Shown here in pieces: positions 7,014 to 61,643 of a stretch of DNA of 64,000 nucleotides. Made by a program: the position numbers and the translations under genes. Origin of the DNA: Candidatus Liminaster caballi (GTDB lineage Bacteria; Bacteroidota; Bacteroidia; Bacteroidales; UBA3663); NCBI GenBank assembly GCA_018065085.1, contig JAGHUA010000016.1:34952-98951 (forward strand), written 5' to 3'. The notes below the pieces were generated by a model. It made no database searches. It worked only from the letters and a program-made list of their open reading frames with translations, and was not told the origin of the DNA. Each line of letters starts with the position of its first letter. Position 1 is the stretch's first letter.

Positions 7014-7097
7014 TCTTTTAACCTTTTAACCTTTTAACCTTTTAACCTTTTAACCTTATAACCTCATAACCTTATAACCTCATAACCTTATAACCTC
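7014..7097. repeat. short tandem 'word' repeat: cttttaac x about 4.5, then cttataacc/tcataacc x about 5
   Basis: Read directly from the sequence. It fills the whole spacer between convergent dtd and dnaA. The + strand has no G from 7014 to 7106. Confidence 0.9.
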
Positions 7098-8489
7098 TTA
7101 CTTACTGGCCGCAATTTTTTGCTCGGCAGTCTCGAACTTTTCCTTAAATTCAGCGTCGGTGTCAAGAAGGTCCTCGACATTCTTCAGGGCGTGGAGAACT
7201 GTGGCATGATCACGGTTGCCCACAACCTGACCGATGCGACTTACCGATTGGGTCGTATATTTCTTGCAGAGCGACATTGCAGCCTGACGGGCAAGCACGA
7301 TCTCACGCTTGCGGCTCTTGCTGTTGATTGACTTCATGTCGATGCCGAACGTGCTGACAACGGCCTGAAGGATTGCTTCGCATGTGATGACTTTCTGTTC
7401 GATCTTCACAATCATGCGCATGACGCGACTTGCCAATTCCTGGTCAATAGGACGGTTGAAGGCAATGGAATGGGCGAGGAGAGAGTTGATGATACCCTCA
7501 AGGTCGCGCACATTATCCGTGGCGTTATGGGCAATATAGTCGATGACATCAGCATCGATCTGGAGACCTTCTTTCTCGCATTTGCCAAGGAGAATGTTCT
7601 TGCGAAGGTCATAGTCAGGATGTTCAATCTCTCCGATAAATCCCCACTTGAATCGGGTCAGCAGACGAGGGATGAGATCTTCAGCAAGTTCAACTGGCGG
7701 ACGGTCACAGGTCATGATCAACTGCTTGCCTGCGGTGTGCAGGTAGTTGAAGATGTGGAAGAATGTATTCTGAGTGGCAACAAGGTTCTTGCCTGCAAAT
7801 TCCTGAATATCATCGACGATAAGAACATCTATCGAGCGGTAGAAGTTGATAAAGTCGTTATGCTGGTTGTTGCGCACGGCATCGGTGTACTGAATCTTGA
7901 AAAGATGTGCAGGTACGTAGAGGACACGTTTCTCCGGCTGATGTTCCTGCACGTACAGGCCGATAGCCTGGGCCAGATGAGTCTTGCCCACGCCTGATGC
8001 GCCGAAGATAAAGAATGGGTTGAACGCATTGTTGCCGGGCTTCTGTGCAACAGTGAGGGCAGCACTCAGAGCAAGTTCATTGCTCTTGCCCTGACAGAAA
8101 GTCTGGAATCGGCAATATGGATTGAGATGTGAATCAAAATCCGCTTCCTTTTTCGTTTCATTTCGCTCTTGAGCCTCGGCCTTTACGCTGTCGTTCTGTG
8201 CAACTTCAATCTGATATCCTAAGGTAATAGGTCCGTACACGCGCTGCAATGTCTTCTTGAGCAGGTCGAAGTACTCTGACTCTAATCGTTCGTAAACAAA
8301 ATGGGACGGAATCTGCATCACCAACTTGCCATTGGTGAAACTGAGAACCTTGTTATGCGCAAAGTAAGCATTGTATGCCTCCTCATTGCCTACAAGGTTG
8401 TCCCGAATGATGTCGAGACATTGTTCCCATTGTGTTTCGTATTGTTGTTTCATATCGTAATCTGGTTCGATCAAAATTTCCGAGTGCAA
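7098..8489 (-). CDS. dnaA: chromosomal replication initiator protein DnaA
   Basis: The AAA+ P-loop GASGVGKTHL, LIVDDIQ, and the C-terminal DNA-binding helix RDHATVLHA are present. The length is 463 aa. Confidence 0.95.
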   Translation of the reverse strand: MHSEILIEPDYDMKQQYETQWEQCLDIIRDNLVGNEEAYNAYFAHNKVLSFTNGKLVMQIPSHFVYERLESEYFDLLKKTLQRVYGPITLGYQIEVAQNDSVKAEAQERNETKKEADFDSHLNPYCRFQTFCQGKSNELALSAALTVAQKPGNNAFNPFFIFGASGVGKTHLAQAIGLYVQEHQPEKRVLYVPAHLFKIQYTDAVRNNQHNDFINFYRSIDVLIVDDIQEFAGKNLVATQNTFFHIFNYLHTAGKQLIMTCDRPPVELAEDLIPRLLTRFKWGFIGEIEHPDYDLRKNILLGKCEKEGLQIDADVIDYIAHNATDNVRDLEGIINSLLAHSIAFNRPIDQELASRVMRMIVKIEQKVITCEAILQAVVSTFGIDMKSINSKSRKREIVLARQAAMSLCKKYTTQSVSRIGQVVGNRDHATVLHALKNVEDLLDTDAEFKEKFETAEQKIAASK

Positions 8490-8878
8490 AGATGATAAAA
8501 AAAAATTAATTATCCAAATGAAAAAAAGTCCTTAAAAAATTTGGATATATGTAACTTGTTGATTTTTAGGCAGCAATTATGCTAGCCTTTATGTATAGGC
8601 TTTGTTTGATGTTTGAGACCTAAAATATGACTGAAAAACAATAATTTACGAAAAACGGATATTGCCGGAACCAAAAAGTTATCAACAAACAGTTTATCGG
8701 ATATTTTATAATTGTTATTGCTTGAAAAACCGTTATTTAGAGTGTTGACAACTTGCGACGAAATGTTTGTAGATATTTAAATTGTTTATTTTTTGCTTAT
8801 TAAAATGATTTCGCACCATCTAAGTGTCAAAACGCTTAAAAATGGTGCGAAAAAGTGTTGATAACTCATGTTTCCGAA
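8490..8878. other. probable oriC (AT-rich dnaA-upstream gap with DnaA-box-like 9-mers)
   Basis: Box-like 9-mers, all one to two mismatches from TTATCCACA: ttatccaaa 8510-8518; tttggatat 8540-8548 (rc atatccaaa); ttatcaaca 8679-8687; tgttgacaa 8743-8751; tgttgataa 8857-8865 (rc ttatcaaca). Long A/T runs are present and no ORF. Confidence 0.5.
8809..8852 (-). terminator. 11-bp-stem hairpin downstream of cdd (terminator, or an oriC structural element)
   Basis: tttcgcaccat (8809-8819) pairs perfectly with atggtgcgaaa (8842-8852) around a 22-nt loop. The minus strand continues with tcatttta. Confidence 0.3.
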
Positions 8879-9364
8879 CTATTGTCCCATGAGATTGTCA
8901 TAGTTAAAACCGAATGGCAAGAGTGCGTTGATTCCATTGATGACATAGGTTTCTTCTTTCGAGCAAAGCATGATTTCTATTGGGGCTCCGGCTCGGTATT
9001 CCGATTCACAAATCACCTGTCGGCATGCACCGCACGGGGCGCAGATATCTTTTGTGATTTCTCCGTTGGTACGTGCAGCCACTGCCAACTTCAAGATTTT
9101 TGCCTCCGGATATTTCGCGTGCGCGTAAAATATAGTTGTACGTTCCGCGCAAAGGCCCGACGGATATGCCGCGTTCTCCTGATTGCTTCCGCTGATGATT
9201 TCTCCGTTGTCGAGGAGTACTGCAGCGCCCACTTGGAAGTGTGAATAAGGCGAATATGAGGTTAAAGTAGCCTTTTTTGCTGCCTCAACTACATTTTTTT
9301 GCTCTAAAGTGAGTTCTGTTTGGCTACAAATTTGTATCTTTGCACCGATTTCTAAGGTTTTCAT
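8879..9364 (-). CDS. cdd: cytidine deaminase
   Basis: The zinc motifs CAERTTIF and PCGACRQVI are present. I moved the start to the internal ATG at 9364 (MKTLEIG), giving about 161 aa. The listed 194-aa form has an implausible N-terminal extension. Confidence 0.85.
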   Translation of the reverse strand: MKTLEIGAKIQICSQTELTLEQKNVVEAAKKATLTSYSPYSHFQVGAAVLLDNGEIISGSNQENAAYPSGLCAERTTIFYAHAKYPEAKILKLAVAARTNGEITKDICAPCGACRQVICESEYRAGAPIEIMLCSKEETYVINGINALLPFGFNYDNLMGQ

Positions 9365-14502: not shown

Positions 14503-17502
14503 ATGAGTAACCGTCTTTTGCATCTTATTGTACTGCTTTTGATAACAACGGGTTCGATAGTAAATGCGCAGCGCCATCGCTATAATTTCAATCTCGACTG
14601 GAACATGCTCGTAGCCGACTGGGACAGCACTCAGTTCTTCTCCTCACAGGATGCTGTCCGTGCGAAATCCGTTCCCGTTACGCTTCCGCATGCCTGGAAC
14701 GAGGATGACGCCTATCGTGTTGGCATCCATAGTCATCGCGATTCAATAAGCTGGTATTACAAGACGTTCAGTCTGCCTGCCGATGCTCAAGGGAAGCATG
14801 TATTCATCGAGTTTGAGGGTGCTCGCCAGTGTGCCGACGTCTGGCTCAACGGTCATAAGGTTGGATGCAGCGAGAATGGCGTCATGGCTTTCGGCTTTGA
14901 CCTTACTCCTTATCTCTGTGAGGGAGAGAATCAACTTGCCGTGCGTTGCGACAACGATTGGGATTATCGCGAGCGCGGCTCCAATGTGAAATATCAGTGG
15001 AATAACCGCAATTTCAATATGAACATGGGCGGTCTGCCCAAGAATGTGTGGCTTCACGTCACGGGTGATGTCTATCAGACTCTTCCGCTTTATAGTAACC
15101 TTGGCACCACAGGAACCTACATCTACGGCACCGATTATGACATCAAGGGTCACAGGGTGACCGTGAATGCCGAGTCGCAGGTCATCAACACCACCGGCAA
15201 ATCTGTCAAGGTTTCGCTCCGAGTGCAGATTCTGGATGCTGATGGCACGCAGGTGGCTCAATATAATGGTGCAAGCACACAGATTGCAGCCGGCGACACC
15301 GCAATGCTGTCTGCCTCCAAACGTCTGTCGGGCATGCATTTCTGGTCTTGGGGCTATGGCTATCTTTATACCGTCAGGACCGACGTGATGATTGGCGGTA
15401 AGAGCGTCGATCAGGTACAGACTCGTACGGGTTTCCGCAAGACTGACTTCGGTGAAGGCAAAATCTGGCTCAATGACCGTTGCATGATGGTGCATGGCTA
15501 TGCCCAGCGCACCTCCAACGAATGGCCTTCCGTCGGCATCGATCTCCCTGCCTGGCTTTCTGATTACTCGAATGATCTGGTTGTGCAGTCAGGCGGAAAC
15601 GTGATGCGCTGGATGCACGTCACACCAATCAGGCAGGATGTCGAGAGCTGTGACCGTGTCGGTCTGATGCAAGCCATGCCTGCCGGTGATGCCGAGAAGG
15701 ATTGCAGTGGCCGCCAGTGGAGTCAGCGTAAGGAGCTGATGCGCGATGCAATAATCTATAACCGCAACAATCCGTCTGTCATCTTCTATGAGTGCGGCAA
15801 CGAGTCCATCAGCCGTGAACACATGGTCGAGATGAAGGCAATTCGCGACGCTTTTGATCCTCATGGCGGACGTGCCATCGGCAGCCGTGAGATGCTCGAC
15901 ATAGATGAGGCCGAATATGGCGGCGAGATGCTCTATCTCAACAAATCCGGCAAGCATCCAATGTGGGCCATGGAGTACTGCCGAGATGAGGGTTACCGCC
16001 TGTATTGGGACAATTATTCATATCCATGGCATCAGGCAGGGGCCGGTCCATACTATCGCAATGCACCTGCCAATGACTACAACCGCAATCAGGACGATCT
16101 GGCCATCGAGCATATCAGGCGCTGGCATGACTACTACGTGCTACGTCCTGGAATGGGCCGCCGCGTGAGCAGTGGAGGCGTAAAGATTATCTTCAGCGAT
16201 ACCAATACGCACAATCGCAGCGAATTCAACTATCGCACCTCGGGTGTCACTGACGCCATGCGAATACCGAAGGATTCCTACTTTGTACATCAGGTGATGT
16301 GGGACAGCTGGGTTGACGTGCAGCACAGTCGCAGTCATATCCTCGGTCACTGGAACTATCCTGCCGGTGTCAGGAAGGATGTCTATGTGGTCAGCACTTC
16401 GCCGATCGTTGAACTCTTCGTCAACGGTAGGAGTGTGGGCCGTAGTGAGAAACCTGAATATACTTTCCTCCATACCATCAGGGATGTGGATTATCAGCCT
16501 GGTGTAATCAAGGCGGTGAGCTATGCGTCAGATGGTGTGACTGTGGAGAGCGAGGCCATGCATGAGACCGCTGGACGTCCTGATCATCTGCAGCTTACTT
16601 TGATGCAGAACCCCAACGGCATGAAGGCTGACGGCAGCGATCTGGCGCTCATTCAGGTGGAAGTGATGGACAGGGATGGCCGTCGCTGCCCCGTTGATAA
16701 CCGACTGATACATTGGCATCTGAATGGCGACGGTGAATGGCGCGGTGGTATTGCCAAGAGCCCGGATCTTGATAATTACATTCTTTCGACGGATGTTCCT
16801 GTGGAGTGCGGTGTGGGTCGTGTGCTGGTTCGCAGCAAGCGTCTGACCGATGGCAACGGACACATCGAACTCGTAGCCTCTGCCTCTGGTTTGGAGGATG
16901 TCGCCATCTCATGGTCAACAACGGCTATCGATGATGAGAATGGTCTTTCGACCTATCAGGCTGGATGGGAACAGCCCTTGCGCCTTGGACGCGGTGAAAC
17001 TCCGCTAACTTCGTCGTTTACAGAGAAAAAAGTAACCTGCACTATTGCCAGCGTCGAGGCTGGAGCTAACGGCGAGACTGCGGGCAACAGTTTCGATGAT
17101 AATGAACTCTCAGAGTGGCGCAATGACGGACGTCTTTCGACGGCTTGGATCTCTTATACACTCACCGAGCCTGCTGCCATCGATGAGATCAGCCTGAAAC
17201 TGACGGGTTGGCGCCAGCGCAGCTATCCTGTCGAGGTCTATGCCGACGGAAACCTTGTCTGGAGAGGCAATACGCCTAAGAGTCTTGGATATGTCTCTCT
17301 GGTGATAGAAAATCCTATTGTAGCGAAGACTTATACCATCCGTCAGATTGGCAGCGCATCGGATAAGGACGAATTTGGTCAGATTACGGAATTGGCAGGC
17401 GGCTCTGCTACGGAATTGGATCTCTACAAATCAGCTGGTGGCGACAAAGTGAAGGGCGAACTCCGCATCGTGGAGATTGATTTTCTCCAAGATGTAAAAT
17501 AA
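14503..17502 (+). CDS. glycoside hydrolase family 2 protein with a C-terminal discoidin/F5-8 type C-like domain
   Basis: The GH2 sugar-binding region is present (VTLPHAWNEDDAY; WYYKTF...FEGARQCADVWLNGHKVG). The C-terminus NSFDDNELSEWRNDG is typical of F5/8-C modules. The start was moved to the ATG at 14503, ahead of the signal peptide MSNRLLHLIVLLLITTGSIVNAQ. Confidence 0.75.
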   Translation: MSNRLLHLIVLLLITTGSIVNAQRHRYNFNLDWNMLVADWDSTQFFSSQDAVRAKSVPVTLPHAWNEDDAYRVGIHSHRDSISWYYKTFSLPADAQGKHVFIEFEGARQCADVWLNGHKVGCSENGVMAFGFDLTPYLCEGENQLAVRCDNDWDYRERGSNVKYQWNNRNFNMNMGGLPKNVWLHVTGDVYQTLPLYSNLGTTGTYIYGTDYDIKGHRVTVNAESQVINTTGKSVKVSLRVQILDADGTQVAQYNGASTQIAAGDTAMLSASKRLSGMHFWSWGYGYLYTVRTDVMIGGKSVDQVQTRTGFRKTDFGEGKIWLNDRCMMVHGYAQRTSNEWPSVGIDLPAWLSDYSNDLVVQSGGNVMRWMHVTPIRQDVESCDRVGLMQAMPAGDAEKDCSGRQWSQRKELMRDAIIYNRNNPSVIFYECGNESISREHMVEMKAIRDAFDPHGGRAIGSREMLDIDEAEYGGEMLYLNKSGKHPMWAMEYCRDEGYRLYWDNYSYPWHQAGAGPYYRNAPANDYNRNQDDLAIEHIRRWHDYYVLRPGMGRRVSSGGVKIIFSDTNTHNRSEFNYRTSGVTDAMRIPKDSYFVHQVMWDSWVDVQHSRSHILGHWNYPAGVRKDVYVVSTSPIVELFVNGRSVGRSEKPEYTFLHTIRDVDYQPGVIKAVSYASDGVTVESEAMHETAGRPDHLQLTLMQNPNGMKADGSDLALIQVEVMDRDGRRCPVDNRLIHWHLNGDGEWRGGIAKSPDLDNYILSTDVPVECGVGRVLVRSKRLTDGNGHIELVASASGLEDVAISWSTTAIDDENGLSTYQAGWEQPLRLGRGETPLTSSFTEKKVTCTIASVEAGANGETAGNSFDDNELSEWRNDGRLSTAWISYTLTEPAAIDEISLKLTGWRQRSYPVEVYADGNLVWRGNTPKSLGYVSLVIENPIVAKTYTIRQIGSASDKDEFGQITELAGGSATELDLYKSAGGDKVKGELRIVEIDFLQDVK

Positions 17503-17504
17503 TT

Positions 17505-17556
17505 ATGGTAAAATCATGGCAAATTCATGGTAAATTTATGTTGCGCCGCAGGCAAT
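17505..17556. repeat. 11-bp phased repeats atggtaaaatc/atggcaaattc/atggtaaattt followed by ttgcgccgcaggcaat
   Basis: Read directly. A 25-nt exact copy of 17532-17556 recurs at 55844-55868. Confidence 0.8.
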
Positions 17557-17734
17557 TTAAAAATACGCGACTAACACAAATCGAAACTTCTGTTAATGTT
17601 AGGGTGACAAGTCGTACCCCCCTAGTGAAAAGGACTTGACCCTGATTCCCGTTGTATGGAAAAGGACCTGAAACCGAGACCGGAAAAGATGACAAAGAAC
17701 GTTGGCGTTGTGGCAGATGCAGGGAGAGACGTCA

Positions 17735-18580
17735 TCAGTCGTAAAGCTCAAAGAGCTCCGACATCGAGAGTCTGGCGTCGTTTGCGACAACGTTGCGAGT
17801 GAGGCGTTTGGTGTGAGAGTAGATGATGTGCTGGAACCGCTTGCGCATGTCGAAATGCTCGATCTGATATGCATTGACCATGCGGTAGAAGAGATTGCTC
17901 TTGATACGGAAGAATCCCGAACCTTCGGCTGCATCGAGATGACCGGAATAACGGCATACGAAAAGCGGTGGACATCGATCGATGGAGATCGCGCCATGTG
18001 CCTCAAGATAGTTGTTGCGGCGGATGACGGTTCGTCCGGAATATCCAGAGAGTGCAGACAGAGCATTGACAGAAAGTGACCGATTGGCATGAGGGGTTGT
18101 TTCACTCTGTTTCTTTGAGTGCTTCGTTTTTAACTCGTCCTTTCGGTTCTGGCTGTTAATGAACATGAGATGCAGCATCTCCTTCAGTTCCTGTTCGATG
18201 TCATCGAGCCGTATGTTATCCTTCTCCATGCAGCGTATCTTAGCCACGTTCATAGCCAGTGAAGCCTTATGCTTGCCGCACTGTATGGTGTGGGCATAGT
18301 CATGGCGGTAGCAACGCGCTGTGATGCGCAATGTGCCGTCTTTGGACTGTTCCACACGGAAGAGGGATGAATGGTGTATGGCATGCATGAGCTTGTCGGC
18401 TCTCTGCTTGCCCATGTTGAAGTCCTTGCGCATCTGCTTGCACGAGCGACACAGATACACGCTGGACGGAGACAGGCTTTTGATGGCTACACTCAGTGAC
18501 AGCAAGCTGCGTTGCAAGCTGTCCTGCGGCATTGTCTGCAGCAGTTTTGTGGGTACGTTTATGTATTTTGAGTGAGCCAT
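17735..18580 (-). CDS. hypothetical DNA-binding protein with two winged-helix/HTH-like modules (possibly replication-initiator-like)
   Basis: The 281-aa ORF has its own TATCTTTG promoter. The N-terminal module is LSVAIKSL...RADKLMHAIHHSSLFRV, and the second module is LSVNALSALSGYSGRTVIRRNNYLEAHGAISIDR. The functional call is an inference from this layout and the flanking iteron-like repeats. Confidence 0.5.
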   Translation of the reverse strand: MAHSKYINVPTKLLQTMPQDSLQRSLLSLSVAIKSLSPSSVYLCRSCKQMRKDFNMGKQRADKLMHAIHHSSLFRVEQSKDGTLRITARCYRHDYAHTIQCGKHKASLAMNVAKIRCMEKDNIRLDDIEQELKEMLHLMFINSQNRKDELKTKHSKKQSETTPHANRSLSVNALSALSGYSGRTVIRRNNYLEAHGAISIDRCPPLFVCRYSGHLDAAEGSGFFRIKSNLFYRMVNAYQIEHFDMRKRFQHIIYSHTKRLTRNVVANDARLSMSELFELYD

Positions 18581-18603
18581 TTTGCGATGTCTTTTTTACG
18601 CTG

Positions 18604-18611
18604 CAAAGATA
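18604..18611 (-). promoter_or_regulatory. -7 box (reverse complement TATCTTTG) for the Rep-like gene
   Basis: The minus strand reads cgtatctttgcagcg, 24 nt upstream of the ATG at 18580. Confidence 0.5.
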
Positions 18612-18789
18612 CGAAAAAAAACGCTAAAAAGCAAGTTTTTGTTCATATTTTTTCAAAAAAATCGACCTGTACGATCGATATTATGTATGCGAACTTGAAT
18701 GAGAGAGAGTCTCTGCGAGAGTTTTTCTTCTTTACGTAAATTTCCGAAAATTGCCCGTGAATTACGCCGTAAATTGTTTTTCTTCTTTA

Positions 18790-18815
18790 CATGAATTTGC
18801 CATAAATTTCCCATG
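18790..18815. repeat. inverted copy of the 11-bp repeat cluster (reverse complement catgggaaatttatggcaaattcatg)
   Basis: It contains atggcaaattcatg in inverted orientation relative to 17516-17529. It lies in a block of other direct repeats: gtttttcttctttac at 18721 and 18776, and ttcgtgttcat at 18889 and 18909. Confidence 0.6.
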
Positions 18816-18928
18816 CTCCGAGCTTGCTCGCGCGACCCGAAGGTAGCAATATAAGCTCATAAATAATTTTTGAAAAATTCGTGGTTAATTCGTGTTCATA
18901 AAAAATCCTTCGTGTTCATTTGTGGTTC

Positions 18929-19597
18929 AAAAATCGGTTCCGGGCATTTCCTAAGACTTGGGAAGTCGCCAGAACATTGTTCCCGGCATTTGCTAAGAGT
19001 TGGGAAGTCGTCAGAACATTGTTCCGAGCATTTCCAGAAACCTGGAAGTCGTCAGAACATTGTTCCGGGCATTTCCAGAAACCTAGAAGTCGTCAGAACA
19101 ATGTTCCCAGCATTTCCTAAGAGTTGTGAAGTCGCCAGAACATTGTTCCCAGCATTTCTAGAAACCTGGAAGTCGCCAGAACATTGTTCCCAGCATTTCC
19201 TAAGAGTTGGGAAGTCGTCAGAACATTGTTCCGAGCATTTCCAGAAACCTGGAAGTCGTCAGAACATTGTTCCGAGCATTTGCTAAGAGTTGGGAAGTCG
19301 CCAGAACATTGTTCCCAGCATTTCCAGAAACCTGGAAGTCGCCAGAACATTGTTCCGAGCATTTCCAGAAACCTGAAAGTCGTCAGAACATTGTTCCCAG
19401 CATTTCCAGAAACCTGGAAATCCAAATGAAACTTTCTCCAGCGCTTCCTAAGAGTTGGGAAGTCCAAATGAAACTTTCTCCAGCATTTCCTAAGAGTCGG
19501 GAAGTCCAAATGAAACTTTCTCTCGCACTTTCGAAGAGTTGGGAAGTCCAAATGAAACTTTTGCCGGCATTTCCTAAGAGTCGGGAAGTCCAAACGA
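18929..19597. repeat. array 1: about 16 contiguous mosaic 41/42-bp units (11 type A, then 5 type B)
   Basis: Unit modules are gcatttcc | taagagtYg or agaaacct | ggaagtc | gYcagaacattgttccSa (type A) or caaatgaaactttctcca (type B). There are no unique spacers. ORFs on both strands in several frames arise only because stop codons are rare. Confidence 0.95.
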
Positions 19598-19745
19598 ATG
19601 CAAACTGAATGGATGCATTGGTGGTAAATGCATAGATGTCTTTTGCTTCAATTGCATTTTCCGCCTGTTCTGTTGGCGCATCAGATGTCTGAGCATACAC
19701 ACTGCTGAATAGCAGTAGTGATGCAGCAATTAAGATTTTTCTCAT
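19383..19745 (-). CDS. doubtful small exported protein whose C-terminal two thirds are read out of array 1
   Basis: It has a good signal peptide (MRKILIAASLLLFSSVYAQ) and a unique 30-aa segment. It then runs into 14-aa repeats (SFIWTSRLLGNAGE) encoded by type B units. It may be a gene truncated by the array. Confidence 0.25.
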   Translation of the reverse strand: MRKILIAASLLLFSSVYAQTSDAPTEQAENAIEAKDIYAFTTNASIQFAFVWTSRLLGNAGKSFIWTSQLFESARESFIWTSRLLGNAGESFIWTSQLLGSAGESFIWISRFLEMLGTMF

Positions 19746-20594
19746 ATAATACATATGAAACTCCTATAGCCATCCCTGATTCGGATATTAAACAAAAAAG
19801 ACGTAGGCGGCTGATCCTTGCTCGTCCTGCGTCTAGAGGCCTTCCACAGCCCGTACAGTCAGAAACGAGCAGTATGCAGAAGCCCACGTCAGACTATTGA
19901 TGAAAGACTTAATAGCTTAATAATCAGCATTTATCGAAAGACAATTTTGCGAATTGATACCATATTGTTCCCAAACAAAAATAAAGAGTTGTTGCATGGG
20001 AAAATAGAGGGAGACAAGAATTAAAATGAGGGTAAAACAAGAAAAATCCAATTAGGATTCGTTAACCATATATTTACATTTATTAACTAGCAATTTCGAT
20101 ATAATTTATATGGTCAAACATCCCCTAAGGTCAAATAAAAAGGATATGTAGTCCGCGCTATTGAATGCTTGCGAGAACTATAAAATAGCTATAAAATGCC
20201 GAATAAAAGCATGATTTGCACCTATCCTGTACCTTGTCCTTCTAACTGGCTGAAACTAAAGCTACATCACCGTTCATGTGGAATTGTAATGTTGCTTGAA
20301 ACACAGCGACTTATTCAAATCGGGTACAACGAAGATACAATTTTCAATAAGTAGTTATAAGCAGGGGAATCTACCCCGAAATAACTGTAGATGATAGGGA
20401 AATAAACAAAAGTGAAAAATTTTCATCTGGTACGAAATGGCAGATATAAGTGGCAAAATATTATAATTAACAAACTAATTGCGTGTAGAAATTATTGCTG
20501 TTAGAAGTAAGCTAAACCGGTTATTATTTTGAAAAAAATTATTAATTTTATATTTTTTTATTTCCTCCAATTTGCCTATACCATTATTATCTAT

Positions 20595-33750: not shown

Positions 33751-33836
33751 AATTGGCCTAATAAGTCCAATTGGCCTAATAAGTCCAATTAGCCTAATAA
33801 GCCCAATTAGCCTAATAAGCCCAATTGACCCAATTT
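33751..33836. repeat. 18-bp tandem repeat aattRgcctaataagYcc x about 4.7
   Basis: Read directly, in the spacer between convergent genes. Confidence 0.9.
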
Positions 33837-36571: not shown

Positions 36572-37714
36572 TTATGCTGGATATTGCATGGTGATGCAAT
36601 GGAGTGAACCATGCTGTCTGACAAGAACCTGACAGTCAATGCCTACAATCTCACGGTCAGGGAATGCGTCTTGCAATGCCTCCATCGCCTGTCTGTCCTT
36701 GGCTGGTTGTCCATAGGTCGGCATGAGCACCGCACCATTGACGATAAGGAAATTGGCGTATGTGGCTGGCAGTCGCTGTTCGCGTTCTTCCTCAACGAAA
36801 TAGGCAAAGTTTCCTTCGATGACAGGGTCGGGCAGAGGCACGGGAATCAAGCGGAATGGACGTCCGTCGATGGTGCGAAGCGCCATTAATTCGCGTTCCA
36901 TGGCCGATAGCGTCCCGAAATGCTCGTCTTCCGGATCTGTGCACTGCACATAGACAATGGTGTCATTCGGACAGAGACGTGCCACCGTGTCAATGTGTCC
37001 GTCAGTGTCATCTCCGTCGAGCCAGCTGTTGTCGAGCCATAGGATATGCTTGGCATTGAGCGTACGTCTGAGCATTTCCTCTGCCTCTGCCTTAGTCTCG
37101 TAATAGTTGCGGTTTGGAGCCATCAGGCAGCTGGTTGTGGTGAGTAATGTGCCGCATCCATCGCTCTCCACACTTCCGCCTTCGAGCACGATGCGACGGT
37201 TGTCGGCATAGCTTACCTCGCCTTTCAGATTCTGGCTAAGCCACTCGAATGTGTGTTCGTTGATACGGTTGTCAAAGTTCGATGCAAACTTCTGTCCCCA
37301 TCCGTTGAAGCAGAAATCTGAAAGGATTTTACCTCCTTTATCTCCCTTATCTCCCTTATCTTCTTTATCTCCCTTATCTCCCTTATCTTCTTTATCCTCT
37401 ATACCTTCCATTCCACTCTCTCCCACAAGGGTCAGGAACGCATGATCGCGCGCCCAAGTGTCGTTGGTTGGCACTTCAAGGATGTGGATGCGATCCATCA
37501 TAACGCCAGGAGTGTCATTAAGAATCTCACGGACCGATTCCGGTTCTGGTGTAACGATGATGAGATCCTCGCGCAAAGACACTTCACGAGCCACATTACG
37601 ATAACACTCCACTGCCGATTGGAGATATGGATTCCAGTCGGTGTCGGCATGAGGCCAGGCAATCTGAACGAAGCTCTGAGGCTCCCACTCGGCAGGCAGG
37701 CGTTTAGTGTACAT
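36572..37714 (-). CDS. aguA: agmatine deiminase family protein carrying an about 33-aa low-complexity insertion
   Basis: The N-terminus is LPAEWEPQSFVQIAWPH, with WARD, DGHIDT and the C-terminal GSLHCITMQ catalytic Cys context. The insertion reads ..GIEDKEDKGDKGDKEDKGDKGDKGGK.. Confidence 0.8.
   Translation of the reverse strand: MYTKRLPAEWEPQSFVQIAWPHADTDWNPYLQSAVECYRNVAREVSLREDLIIVTPEPESVREILNDTPGVMMDRIHILEVPTNDTWARDHAFLTLVGESGMEGIEDKEDKGDKGDKEDKGDKGDKGGKILSDFCFNGWGQKFASNFDNRINEHTFEWLSQNLKGEVSYADNRRIVLEGGSVESDGCGTLLTTTSCLMAPNRNYYETKAEAEEMLRRTLNAKHILWLDNSWLDGDDTDGHIDTVARLCPNDTIVYVQCTDPEDEHFGTLSAMERELMALRTIDGRPFRLIPVPLPDPVIEGNFAYFVEEEREQRLPATYANFLIVNGAVLMPTYGQPAKDRQAMEALQDAFPDREIVGIDCQVLVRQHGSLHCITMQYPA
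37337..37399. repeat. in-frame 9-bp x 7 (27-bp x 2.3) tandem repeat inside aguA
   Basis: The + strand reads tttatctcc cttatctcc cttatcttc and so on. The + strand has no G from 37326 to 37428. Confidence 0.9.
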
Positions 37715-47542: not shown

Positions 47543-47670
47543 TTCTTTACTTTCTTTAGCCTTTTAACCTTTTAACCTTTTAACCTTTTAACCCTTTAAC
47601 CTTTTAACCCTTTAACCTCTTCACTCTCTTTACTCTCTTTACTCTTTACTCCTTACCCTCTCATTACTAT
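47543..47670. repeat. short 'word' repeats (cttttaac / cctttaac x about 7, then ctctttact variants)
   Basis: Read directly. A single G occurs on the + strand between 47531 and 47670. The last 10 codons of the upstream 165-aa ORF lie inside it. Confidence 0.9.
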
Positions 47671-52763: not shown

Positions 52764-52766
52764 TGT

Positions 52767-53302
52767 CCCAACTCTTAGGAAGTGCCGCCGAAAGTTTCAT
52801 TTGGATTTCCCAACTCTTAGGAAGTGCCGCCGAAACTTTCATTTGGAGTTCCCAACTCTTAGGAAATGCTGCCGAAACTTTCATTTGGACTTCCCAACTC
52901 TTAGGAAATGCTGCCGAAAGTTTCATTTGGGCTTCCCAACTCTTAGGAAATGCCGCCGAAAGTTTGTTTTGGATTTCCAGCTTTCTGGAAATGCTTAGAA
53001 CAAAGTTCTGGCGACTTCCCAAGTCTTGGCAAATGCTCGGAACAATGTGCTGGCGATTTCCCAAGTCTTGGCAAATCCTCGGAACAATGTTCTGGCGACT
53101 TCTAGCTTTCTGGAAATGCTGAGAACAATGTTCTGGCGACTTCCCAAGTCTTGGCAAATCCTCGGAACAATGTGCTGAGGACTTCCAGCTTTCTGGAAAT
53201 GCTGAGAACAATGTTCTAGCGATTTCCTAACTCTTGGGAAATGCTGAGAACAATGTTCTGGCGACTTCCCAACTCTTGGGAAATGCTTAGAACCGATTTT
53301 TT
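52767..53302. repeat. array 3: inverted counterpart of array 1 (5 reverse-complement type B units, then about 7.5 reverse-complement type A units)
   Basis: It starts 4 nt after the DUF853 stop. It ends in gaaccgatttttt, the reverse complement of the aaaaatcggttc that opens array 1. Confidence 0.95.
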
Positions 53303-59549: not shown

Positions 59550-59612
59550 AGTGTGTAAAGGGTAAGGGAGTAAAGAGTAATGGGTAAAGAGTAATGAGGG
59601 TGAAGAGTAATG
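59550..59612. repeat. C-free 'word' repeats (gtaaagRg / gtaatgRg variants)
   Basis: The + strand has no C from 59540 to 59618. It uses the same word family as the reverse complement of 47600-47670. Confidence 0.85.
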
Positions 59613-61171: not shown

Positions 61172-61549
61172 TTATACCTCGGCAACAACCTCAATCTCGA
61201 TGAGGCCATTCTTTGGAAGAGTCTTTACGGCAACAGCCGAACGAGCCGGGAACGGAGTAACGAAGTACTGTGAATAGAGTTCGTTGAGAGTGGCGAAGTC
61301 AGCCATGTCGGCCATAAAGACTGAGACCTTGACAACCTTTTCGAACGACGATCCGGCGGCAGCAAGGATTGCACCTACATTCTTAAGGCTCTGTTCGGCC
61401 TGGCTGCGGAAGTCCTCGCCTGCGAAATTGCCTGTTGTTGGATCAATGCCGAGCTGACCGCTTGCATAGAGCATACCGTTGATGACTACTGCCTGACTGT
61501 AAGCACCGATGGCAGCTGGTGCGTTTGGGGTAGAGATAATGGATTTCAT
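61172..61549 (-). CDS. ridA: RidA family reactive-intermediate deaminase
   Basis: The 125-aa product contains APAAIGAYSQAV..NGMLYASGQLG.DP.TG and ends with EIEVVA. Confidence 0.85.
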   Translation of the reverse strand: MKSIISTPNAPAAIGAYSQAVVINGMLYASGQLGIDPTTGNFAGEDFRSQAEQSLKNVGAILAAAGSSFEKVVKVSVFMADMADFATLNELYSQYFVTPFPARSAVAVKTLPKNGLIEIEVVAEV

Positions 61550-61643
61550 TGTTTTATTGTTTTATTGTTTTATTGTTTTATTGTTTTTTAATTTGTAAAT
61601 TTGTCCTTCGTTTTTCGTTCTTCGTATTTTCGTCTTTCGTCAT
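61550..61643. repeat. short 'word' repeats (tgttttat x 4.5, then ttcgtNttt variants)
   Basis: Read directly. It fills the whole spacer between the 176-aa ORF stop and the ridA start. The + strand is C-free from 61550 to 61604. Confidence 0.85.

Follow-up and report, generated by a model that had tools for sequence, protein, structure and literature searches.

A predicted two-winged-helix protein family accompanied by phased short repeats and 42-bp arrays in gut and rumen Bacteroidales

Protein/repeat-array modules such as iterons, incA, sopC and parC are textbook features of plasmids and phages. In R1 parC/ParR and pBtoxis tubC/TubR, a small DNA-binding protein binds short phased iterons cooperatively and represses the operon promoter as well. 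In sopC of plasmid F, 12 direct repeats of 43 bp each contain a 16-bp inverted repeat that is bound by SopB (PMC3177203). Here we describe a chromosomal cassette built around ORF281, a minus-strand gene in a 64,000-nt stretch of Candidatus Liminaster caballi (contig JAGHUA010000016.1, positions 34,952 to 98,951; the whole stretch is called the window below). ORF281 encodes a predicted DNA-binding protein with two winged-helix (wH) domains and is accompanied by short phased repeats and by an array of 41/42-bp units. The recurrence of this three-part cassette in other gut and rumen Bacteroidales makes it look like an undescribed protein-repeat module of plasmid or phage style that is resident in chromosomes. 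The protein family and its chromosomal setting are new, while the principle of a DNA-binding protein with cognate repeat arrays, of the iteron or centromere type, is known. Our literature search found no description of the family or the cassette and nothing relevant on Bacteroidales iterons or 42-bp repeats; PINSR of Prevotella intermedia, a dispersed 188-bp repeat, is unrelated.

We surveyed 40 loci with close ORF281 homologs, taken from genome and metagenome scans, with Tandem Repeats Finder (TRF). Apart from the window, these loci belong to rumen metagenome-assembled genomes (MAGs) and metagenomes. Every locus with at least 300 bp of upstream DNA (36 of 36) has tandem clusters with a 10-12-bp period within 900 bp of the start codon. 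Where the downstream DNA reached 1.3 kb or more, as it did in 19 loci, an array with a 41- or 42-bp unit was present in 18; it comprises 3-11 units and starts 0.4-1.25 kb after the gene. The sole exception among the 19, L002, has a degenerate array only. The repeat sequences change completely between clades while the periods stay constant: there are at least six unrelated 42-mers, and the short repeats comprise an xGACA type, TTTTGCCCCT, AGTCCTCAAT, CCTGACGATG and the ATGGnAAATTy of the window. Phased repeats accompany the close relatives wherever the flank suffices, which is how cognate binding sites would be distributed. In the usual arrangement, a small AraC-type (HTH_18) gene separates the wH-wH gene from the array; because arrays also occur without it, in the window, L001 and L004, the invariant partners are the wH-wH gene, the short repeats and the array.

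The array units of most other clades are dyad-symmetric, with arms of 8-11 bp about 8-12 bp apart, and the L003 unit has only a short 5-bp dyad. Their single-strand fold strength is high in some clades only, so hairpin stability is not conserved, and the property common to most clades' arrays is dyad symmetry on double-stranded DNA rather than a single-strand hairpin. Such symmetry is a signature of sites for dimeric DNA-binding proteins. In four genomes that carry two cassette copies, homology extends from the first short-repeat cluster to the last array unit, over about 2.8 kb at 80-91% identity, and not beyond. Because the homology of the paralogs ends at the repeats, it defines the cassette as a unit; overall, the cassettes of the close members measure about 2-3 kb, with arrays of about 5-11 units. 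The paralogous gene copies are under purifying selection (ratio of nonsynonymous to synonymous substitution rates, dN/dS, 0.12-0.19) and the chromosomal sites are conserved, which contradicts the remnant that a preliminary description of the window, made from its sequence alone, had considered.

The upstream regions of the RGIG-type loci contain 3-8 tandem modules, each with 3-5 10-mer units (NNNNxGACA) that lead into the consensus -7 promoter GTGCCAAATTTCCTTTTCGTAACTTTGCAACG. The -7 box comes 19 nt after the last GACA, a geometry that suits promoter control. AATTCRTG or TTCGTG words are found upstream of the window gene, of the L001 homolog (43% identity) and of the L046 homolog (28% identity). 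We also observed that in L007-L013 and L026-L045 (e.g. L010 9395-9960) the modules carry a consensus TAACTTTG promoter and all point at one gene, and that strains differ in how many modules they have and how many units each module contains. A conserved long inverted repeat of about 110 nt (CAAATTCTC..GGAAATAGTCGGG...CCCGA..GACTATTTCC..GAGAATTTG) lies between the wH-wH and AraC-type genes of L010 (10985-11100) and L020 (6070-6190). It shows apparent compensatory differences between two clades, has no Rfam match and is absent from the window.

ORF281 has a promoter of its own, as the preliminary description had reported for this 281-aa minus-strand ORF. The upstream sequence cgTATCTTTGcagcg fits the Bacteroidetes -7 motif TAnnTTTG at 18611-18604 on the minus strand, and this box is one of two matches to the motif in 17300-20100. 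The AlphaFold model used here, computed from an alignment of 101 family sequences, is confident (pLDDT 89.9, pTM 0.85); in an earlier run with 6 sequences, the C-terminal half was poor (pLDDT 60.6). In the model, the first wH domain (about residues 21-88) consists of helices 21-36, 47-54 and 58-68 and strands 41-44, 74-78 and 84-88, and the second (about residues 171-210) of helices 171-178 and 182-194 and strands 198-201 and 205-210. Between them lie a beta-hairpin region and then a 30-residue helix (125-154), and the small, beta-rich C-terminal part carries the conserved residues Y238, I253, H256 and R259.

In a PDB profile search, the second helix-turn-helix (HTH, residues 159-206) resembled the HTHs of MarR, Crp and GntR (E about 1e-4). 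Outside it, in the N-terminal wH domain and the C-terminal beta part, ORF281 matched no PDB sequence, and the search with the N-terminal-domain profile was empty. When the family was compared with Pfam member by member, 57 of the 101 sequences matched HTH_Crp_2 and 40 matched HTH_36 weakly (best E 8e-5); individual comparison with NCBIfam and PHROGs gave generic HTH or scattered weak matches only. ORF281 itself matched no Pfam family at E <= 10 and none in NCBIfam or PADLOC, and its two PHROGs matches were weak and non-significant (E about 0.07). No domain of known catalytic type was detected in the model or with Foldseek in the PDB, and no transposase domain in Pfam or NCBIfam. We conclude that ORF281 is a real gene and that its product, judged from the predicted fold, is a DNA-binding protein with two winged-helix domains. 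The two HTH/wH modules proposed earlier are thus borne out by the AlphaFold model and the HTH profiles, and the structure prediction gave a DNA-binding wH fold and not a non-DNA-binding one.

The gene, its repeats and the arrays occupy the following positions in the window:

17505-17540, plus strand: left cluster of 3.3 phased 11-bp units, ATGGTAAAATC ATGGCAAATTC ATGGTAAATTT ATG (TRF span 17501-17540)
17735-18580, minus strand: ORF281, 281 aa, predicted two-winged-helix DNA-binding protein, identical to MBQ0056636.1 from a Candidatus Liminaster caballi MAG
18597-18613, minus strand: ORF281 promoter, with the Bacteroidetes -7 box TATCTTTG at 18611-18604
18652-18679, minus strand: terminator-like hairpin (18679-18661) and T-run, ATCGATCGTACAGGTCGAT TTTTTTG, between the repeat modules and the ORF281 promoter
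18721-18775, minus strand: repeat module 2, 11/12-bp units ACGGCGTAATTC / ACGGGCAATTTTC / GGAAATTTACG, then the constant segment GTAAAGAAGAAAAAC
18776-18815, minus strand: repeat module 1, ATGGGAAATTT ATGGCAAATTC ATG, then the constant segment GTAAAGAAGAAAAAC; inverted partner of the left cluster
18876-18930, no strand assigned: AATTCGTG / TTCGTGTTCAT repeats, 3-4 copies at spacings of 11 and 20 bp
18937-19419, no strand assigned: array 1, A-type, about 11 units of 41/42 bp
19416-19598, no strand assigned: array 1, B-type, 4.4 units of 42 bp with outer arms as in the A-type and a GAAAnTTTC centre
52766-53293, no strand assigned: array 2, an inverted copy of array 1 (five B' units, then seven A' units)

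The left cluster begins 3 nt past the stop codon of a convergent GH2 gene, 195 bp beyond the ORF281 stop codon, and its orientation is inverted relative to the upstream cluster. TRF and a repeat finder located the upstream 11-bp units at 18735-18775 and 18790-18815. The constant segment (plus strand GTTTTTCTTCTTTAC) occurs at 18721 and 18776 and opens a 30-nt repeat that is 83% identical; TTCGTGTTCAT is likewise found twice, at 18889 and 18909. Of the 25 nt in the inverted pair 17505-17529 / 18790-18814, 22 match (88% complementary); when 17400-18930 was shuffled 200 times with dinucleotides preserved, no 25-nt inverted match was better than 19 of 25. The motif ATGGNAAATTY has five exact matches in the 64-kb window, four of them in the two 11-mer clusters. 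The 11-bp units at 17505-17537, their inverted words at 18790-18815 and both pairs of direct repeats (18721/18776 and 18889/18909) had been noted in the preliminary description and were recovered here, as was the continuity of the repeat block with array 1: the short repeats abut the array, which starts at 18937. Read on the minus strand, the window presents the array, the TTCGTG repeats, the two 11-mer modules, the hairpin, the promoter, the gene and an extra inverted 11-mer cluster. The hairpin would block minus-strand read-through from the array side. This order is permuted relative to the other loci, where the array lies downstream of the gene, the short repeats lie upstream and no inverted cluster stands behind the gene. 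The flanking inverted clusters are real, yet they are a local variant and not the defining architecture.

The A-type unit is a 33-bp imperfect palindrome (GGAAGT-5-GAACAtTGTTC-5-ATTTCC) with an 8/9-bp linker. Within each half of a window unit, about one helical turn separates the outer arm from the inner, and the units follow each other every four turns. Arrays 1 and 2 are separated by 33 kb and have only about 12 bp of flank in common (GAACCGATTTTT); as an inverted pair, they could mediate inversion of the intervening 33 kb. Array 2, which like the gene/repeat association in other genomes was absent from the preliminary description, begins 3 bp past a HerA-like gene's stop codon; beyond it come two TAnnTTTG boxes (53364 and 53460) and a low-GC island. 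Neither an ORF281 paralog nor an AraC-type gene was found beside array 2 or elsewhere in the window. A start 3-20 bp after the stop codon of a co-directional gene is also seen for the arrays behind the AraC-like genes of L010 and L020. Because the arrays have a higher-order period of 83 bp, which is not a multiple of 3, they are not coding. Window units fold as single strands at -2.9 and -0.7 kcal/mol, no better than shuffles; in a G-T wobble test, both array strands gain wobble pairs at different positions, and neither strand is favoured. Rfam gave no credible match in the window or in three other loci. Next to array 1, the ORF 19383-19754 (minus strand) has a signal-peptide start (MRKILIAASLLLFSSVYAQ) and runs into the B-type units, which it would translate into 14-aa repeats; it has the look of a gene start that the array truncated. 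On the minus strand, a TAnnTTTG box at 19983 points into array 1 and would transcribe this ORF and the array toward ORF281.

A word-indexed search of 5.8 billion proteins returned six matches, ORF281 itself and five homologs at 38-54% identity, and an exhaustive profile search expanded the family to at least 135 clusters at 50% identity, nearly all of 260-310 aa. The family is genuine and unannotated. Its close subfamily was found only in chromosomes of gut and rumen Bacteroidales and is without a match in IMG/VR, the plasmid collection and the phage records. In tblastn searches, 72,556 plasmids contained no match to ORF281 or to the phage member P0139, and 50,697 phage records contained no match to P0139. 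The preliminary description had envisaged repeats travelling with homologs and with plasmids or integrative and conjugative elements: repeats do accompany the close homologs, and no homolog was found among the 72,556 plasmids.

Distant members (21-28% identity) lie on phage-like contigs of 82-95 kb that belong to large Bacteroidales phages. Two of them (L018 and L019) are IMG/VR genomes, the contig of L017 also carries resolvase, GIY-YIG, TnpB and SSB genes, and that of L047 encodes a 2783-aa protein. Phage members are followed by an RNase H gene in three independent cases: immediately in L016 and L019, and after a single small ORF in L047. The phage relatives have no iterons or arrays. In the phage-like L016 (1-2102), the family member stands between a vWA/TROVE-like gene and the RNase H gene, and the 275-bp non-coding stretch before it contains ACGTATAAC in direct and inverted repeats. 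An intermediate member, L046 (28% identity), is located directly after a tyrosine integrase, and a BLAST search with this integrase found no integrase in the other loci.

The preliminary description had likened ORF281 to the iteron-type initiators of the RepA/Rep_3 class. Two Rep_3-like traits are present: the protein is predicted to have two tandem wH domains in the size range of about 250-330 aa, and phased direct repeats, putative binding sites, adjoin the gene and overlap its promoter in the window and at the homologous loci. Membership in the class found no support in Pfam, NCBIfam, Foldseek or hhalign. ORF281 matched neither Rep_3 (PF01051) nor Rep3_C (PF21205), and of the 105 families that the 101 family members matched, the 25 most frequent do not include Rep_3; by comparison, the true RepE homologs that we retrieved all carry PF01051 and PF21205. 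An hhalign comparison of the ORF281-family profile (101 sequences) with a RepE profile (15 homologs) gave a probability of 0.27% (E 0.22). Of 1264 Foldseek matches in the PDB none reached E <= 0.001, and among the best 50 there was no RepE, Pi or RepA structure, only generic wH proteins, all with E >= 0.055; the earlier 6-sequence model likewise gave generic wH matches only. Every homology test was negative, and we conclude that ORF281 is not a Rep_3 replication initiator.

The best structural matches came from BFVD and are predicted structures of phage proteins of the same length (E 5.5e-10, 3.9e-8 and 9e-8; TM-scores 0.44-0.55). Among the weaker BFVD matches are proteins labelled 'Replication protein O' (E 3.6e-5) and 'Replication initiator protein' (5.2e-4), with TM-scores of 0.3-0.4, and 'Replisome organizer' (6.4e-3). 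Because such phage-initiator labels are automatic annotations, we take them as a lead only. Phage_rep_O was not matched. No DnaA box was noticed by eye in 17400-19000 and no AT-rich unwinding element was established, with no systematic search made for either.

Taken together, we put the probability at about one half that ORF281 is an autoregulated, array-binding architectural or regulatory protein. On this reading, ORF281 would bind the short phased repeats cooperatively, all on one helix face, and thereby control its own promoter, and it would also bind the dyad-symmetric 42-bp units as a dimer. The two wH domains of each subunit could reach both sub-sites of each half-palindrome, and the four-turn spacing of the units would place all sites on one face and allow a large nucleoprotein complex to form. 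Of the two possibilities raised in the preliminary description, a replication/partition module or a dedicated regulator that binds the arrays, the regulator fits better; a role in replication appears unlikely, and one as a centromere more so.

Several observations weigh against an array-binding regulator. Physical linkage by itself would make protein and repeats co-diverge. With tens of short repeats plus about 10-15 large units, the sites are far more numerous than at ordinary operators. Compared by eye, the short repeats and 42-mers of one clade have no clear common motif, and the resemblances are weak: TGGnAAAT / TGGAAATG in the window and TGGACA / TGGTCA or TGGCCA in the RGIG clade. The window 11-mers hold phased A-tracts (AAAAT / AAATT / AAATTT) that may curve the DNA intrinsically and without a protein. 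The top structural matches include phage proteins labelled replication initiators, which would point to replication rather than regulation. Finally, other short intergenic tandem repeats are abundant (window 7015, 33751, 47555, 59555 and 61544; L009 16560-16782), so phased repeats near a promoter are not unique to ORF281-type genes.

If the cassette were instead an iteron-type replicon, ORF281 would be the initiator of an integrated or once-episomal element, the short repeats would serve as origin iterons and autoregulatory sites, and the 42-bp array would be a copy-control (handcuffing) locus like P1 incA or F incC. The two-wH architecture in about 280 aa agrees with this, as do the best folds, which are full-length phage proteins with some labelled replication initiators, the weak HTH_36 matches in 40 of 101 members, the position of the phage members close upstream of RNase H (L016, L019 and L047) and that of the L046 member directly after a tyrosine integrase. 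The layout of repeats and promoter, gene, and second array mirrors the P1 and F replicons; the repeats diversify with the protein clade, like incompatibility determinants; and the permuted order in the window could reflect different linearisations of a circle. We nevertheless consider such a replicon unlikely. Rep_3 homology is absent, the close subfamily has no match in plasmids, phage records or IMG/VR, and the phage relatives have no iterons. The window contains no integrase, relaxase or partition gene, a BLAST search of the other loci for the L046 integrase was negative, and housekeeping genes flank the cassette at conserved sites. The coexistence on one chromosome of two copies that share repeat types and are under purifying selection is hard to square with active ectopic origins, and in the window cassette no DnaA box was seen in the by-eye inspection described above, nor an unwinding element established. 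We likewise give a low chance to the idea that a phage-derived, initiator-like wH-wH protein was domesticated together with iterons and a sopC-like array. The arrays would then be conditional secondary origins or paired, 'handcuffed' boundary elements that control copy number, looping or expression of the adjacent hypervariable islands, and the window would hold a 33-kb domain between inverted arrays, 10 kb from dnaA.

The repeats might also act without the protein, as curved promoter DNA or leader/UP-like repeats, with the arrays as 3'-UTR or leader repeats or recombinogenic satellites and ORF281 as an ordinary linked transcription factor. Many unrelated 8-11-bp intergenic tandem repeats in the window and related loci, the phased A-tracts of the 11-mers, the start of arrays 3-20 bp past the stop of a co-directional gene, and the box at 19983 that aims into array 1, with the terminator-like hairpin (18679-18661, minus strand) after the array, would all be in keeping with this. 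It is distinctly unlikely in view of the link to one gene family across at least six lineages with unrelated repeats at different chromosomal sites, the duplicated unit that ends exactly at the repeats, the conserved 41/42-bp period with its non-coding 83-bp period, and the lack of an Rfam match or of conserved hairpin stability. A centromere or pairing device, in which the 42-bp arrays are sopC-like sites for ORF281 dimers that are moved by a host ATPase or paired to loop the chromosome (here over 33 kb), would account for about 10 direct repeats of 41-42 bp, each with a dyad, that closely resemble F sopC and lie just downstream of DNA-binding protein genes. The 10-11-bp repeats round the promoter resemble R1 parC/ParR, each genome has two arrays or cassettes, and the arrays have dyad symmetry rather than hairpin stability in common. 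However, the loci examined have no adjacent ParA, ParM or TubZ-type NTPase and no ParB-family protein, the element is chromosomal and not plasmid-borne, and in other genomes both copies lie on different contigs, which makes this very unlikely. The inverted arms 17505-17540 / 18790-18815, which bracket 1.3 kb with a single ORF, could finally be read as terminal inverted repeats of an insertion sequence (IS) or of a miniature transposable element with inverted repeats (MITE), with ORF281 as transposase. We regard this as effectively excluded: the gene is single-copy in the genome, its nearest homolog is 54% identical and there are no near-identical copies, the predicted fold is two wH domains with no transposase domain, and flanking inverted clusters occur at no other locus.

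The stretch enclosed by the two arrays of the window holds ordinary housekeeping genes, glycoside-hydrolase genes and a low-GC island. Each array has low-GC DNA immediately on its right (31-40% GC; 19.7-27 kb and 53.3-56 kb), which is transcribed away from the array. Encoded in these islands are a GIY-YIG protein of 464 aa, a secreted protein of 311 aa, a DUF5677 protein and several small ORFs that resemble signal-peptide proteins or lipoproteins; no integrase was seen in them. In the RGIG-type loci, the upstream flanks represent two conserved chromosomal sites, and the DNA beyond the array is highly variable and encodes surface and accessory proteins, e.g. BspA-type LRR, dockerin/cohesin and DUF3843 proteins. 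The metagenomic locus L031 combines the left flank of one conserved site with the right flank of the other, which reflects either recombination between paralogous cassettes or a chimeric assembly across repeats. As reported earlier, the window contains no ParA/ParB, integrase or relaxase; ParA/ParB domains and actin-like or tubulin-like genes were also absent from the window neighbours and from ten neighbouring ORFs scanned in L009, L010 and L013. PADLOC gave no support for a defence system, and only the unrelated HerA-like neighbour matched HerA models.

The gene dnaA is located at 7098-8489 on the minus strand and is followed by a low-GC (38%) intergenic stretch at 8490-8880. The cumulative GC skew keeps rising from one end of the window to the other and the skew never changes sign, so these data do not locate oriC, which in Bacteroidetes often lies far from dnaA (PMC4755523). 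The homologous loci have no dnaA in their flanks (up to 10 kb per side, less in many) and no synteny with the window. Because of these findings, the earlier idea of a module next to the chromosomal origin is given no weight, and the proximity of dnaA looks incidental.

Tandem repeats of 8-15 bp were also observed in other intergenic regions of the window, at 7015-7100, 33751-33835, 47555-47650, 59555-59612 and 61544-61640. The repeats at 7015 and 47555 share the unit CCTTTTAA, and those at 47617 and 59555 are built of GTAAAGAG-type units. Several of these repeats stand directly before start codons and are A-rich on the coding strand, e.g. five copies of CAATAAAA before the ATG at 61548; they may be a genome-wide leader or promoter feature. 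In L009 (16560-16782), inverted 11-bp clusters (four copies of GTAGTAAAAGG and five of its complement TCCCTTTTTAC) surround about 120 bp with 33-bp repeats and are unrelated to the cassette. With the pair in the window, they indicate that inverted phased clusters are recurrent in these genomes. A 9-bp tandem repeat at 37329-37396 (TTATCTCCC, 7.6 copies) lies inside the PAD_porph (agmatine deiminase-like) ORF 36572-37714 (minus strand) and is probably an in-frame low-complexity insertion.

A textbook plasmid and phage design is present here as a stable, selected chromosomal resident of uncultured gut and rumen Bacteroidales, on an unannotated protein family. If the arrays are bound, the family would be a new DNA-binding family with a ready set of cognate sites, and the arrays would be chromosomal landmarks of a new kind in a phylum about whose regulatory and chromosome-organising proteins little is known. 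Many homolog-bearing contigs stop within a few hundred bases of the gene, which is consistent with repeats breaking metagenome assemblies, and knowledge of the cassette would help to interpret MAG fragmentation and rearrangements.

Among known systems, the phage initiators and replisome organizers (lambda O-like, HTH_36) are the best full-length structural matches of ORF281, at TM-scores of only 0.3-0.55. Distant family members lie in phage DNA-metabolism regions near RNase H, but these phage relatives have no iterons or arrays. RctB of Vibrio cholerae chromosome 2, with its 12-mers and 39-mers, resembles our proposal in combining a multi-wH protein with short phased and roughly 40-bp sites. 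RctB has 658 aa and four domains compared with the 281 aa of ORF281, no homology between the two is evident, and the cassette sites do not lie at a demonstrated origin. Like the cassette, R1 parC/ParR and pBtoxis tubC/TubR have about five phased 10-12-bp repeats at or over the promoter, and TubR is, as ORF281 is predicted to be, a winged-helix protein. In contrast to them, the cassette has no ParM or TubZ motor, its protein is larger with two wH domains, and up to eight repeat/promoter modules stand in tandem.

The arrays agree with F sopC in having about 10 tandem units of 41-43 bp with a dyad core downstream of DNA-binding protein genes. ORF281 is not ParB/SopB-like, however, a ParA/SopA ATPase is missing, and the palindromes are longer (33 bp in the window) and often of two unit types. 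Rep_3 initiators (F RepE, R6K Pi and pPS10 RepA) have about 250-330 aa and two tandem wH domains, as predicted for ORF281, and direct as well as dyad-symmetric sites are present in both kinds of system. Their iterons measure 17-22 bp, whereas the cassette has units of 10-11 bp and 41-42 bp, and the cassette differs from Rep_3 plasmids in being chromosomal, at conserved sites, in 1-2 copies per genome and with no plasmid backbone. The P1 and F replicons (incC/oriR-repA-incA and oriS-repE-incC) have, like the cassette, phased direct sites over the promoter and a second array across the gene. If ORF281 binds its repeats as proposed, the logic would be that of the plasmid iteron, incA and sopC, with the module serving regulation or architecture as a chromosomal resident that borders variable accessory-gene regions.

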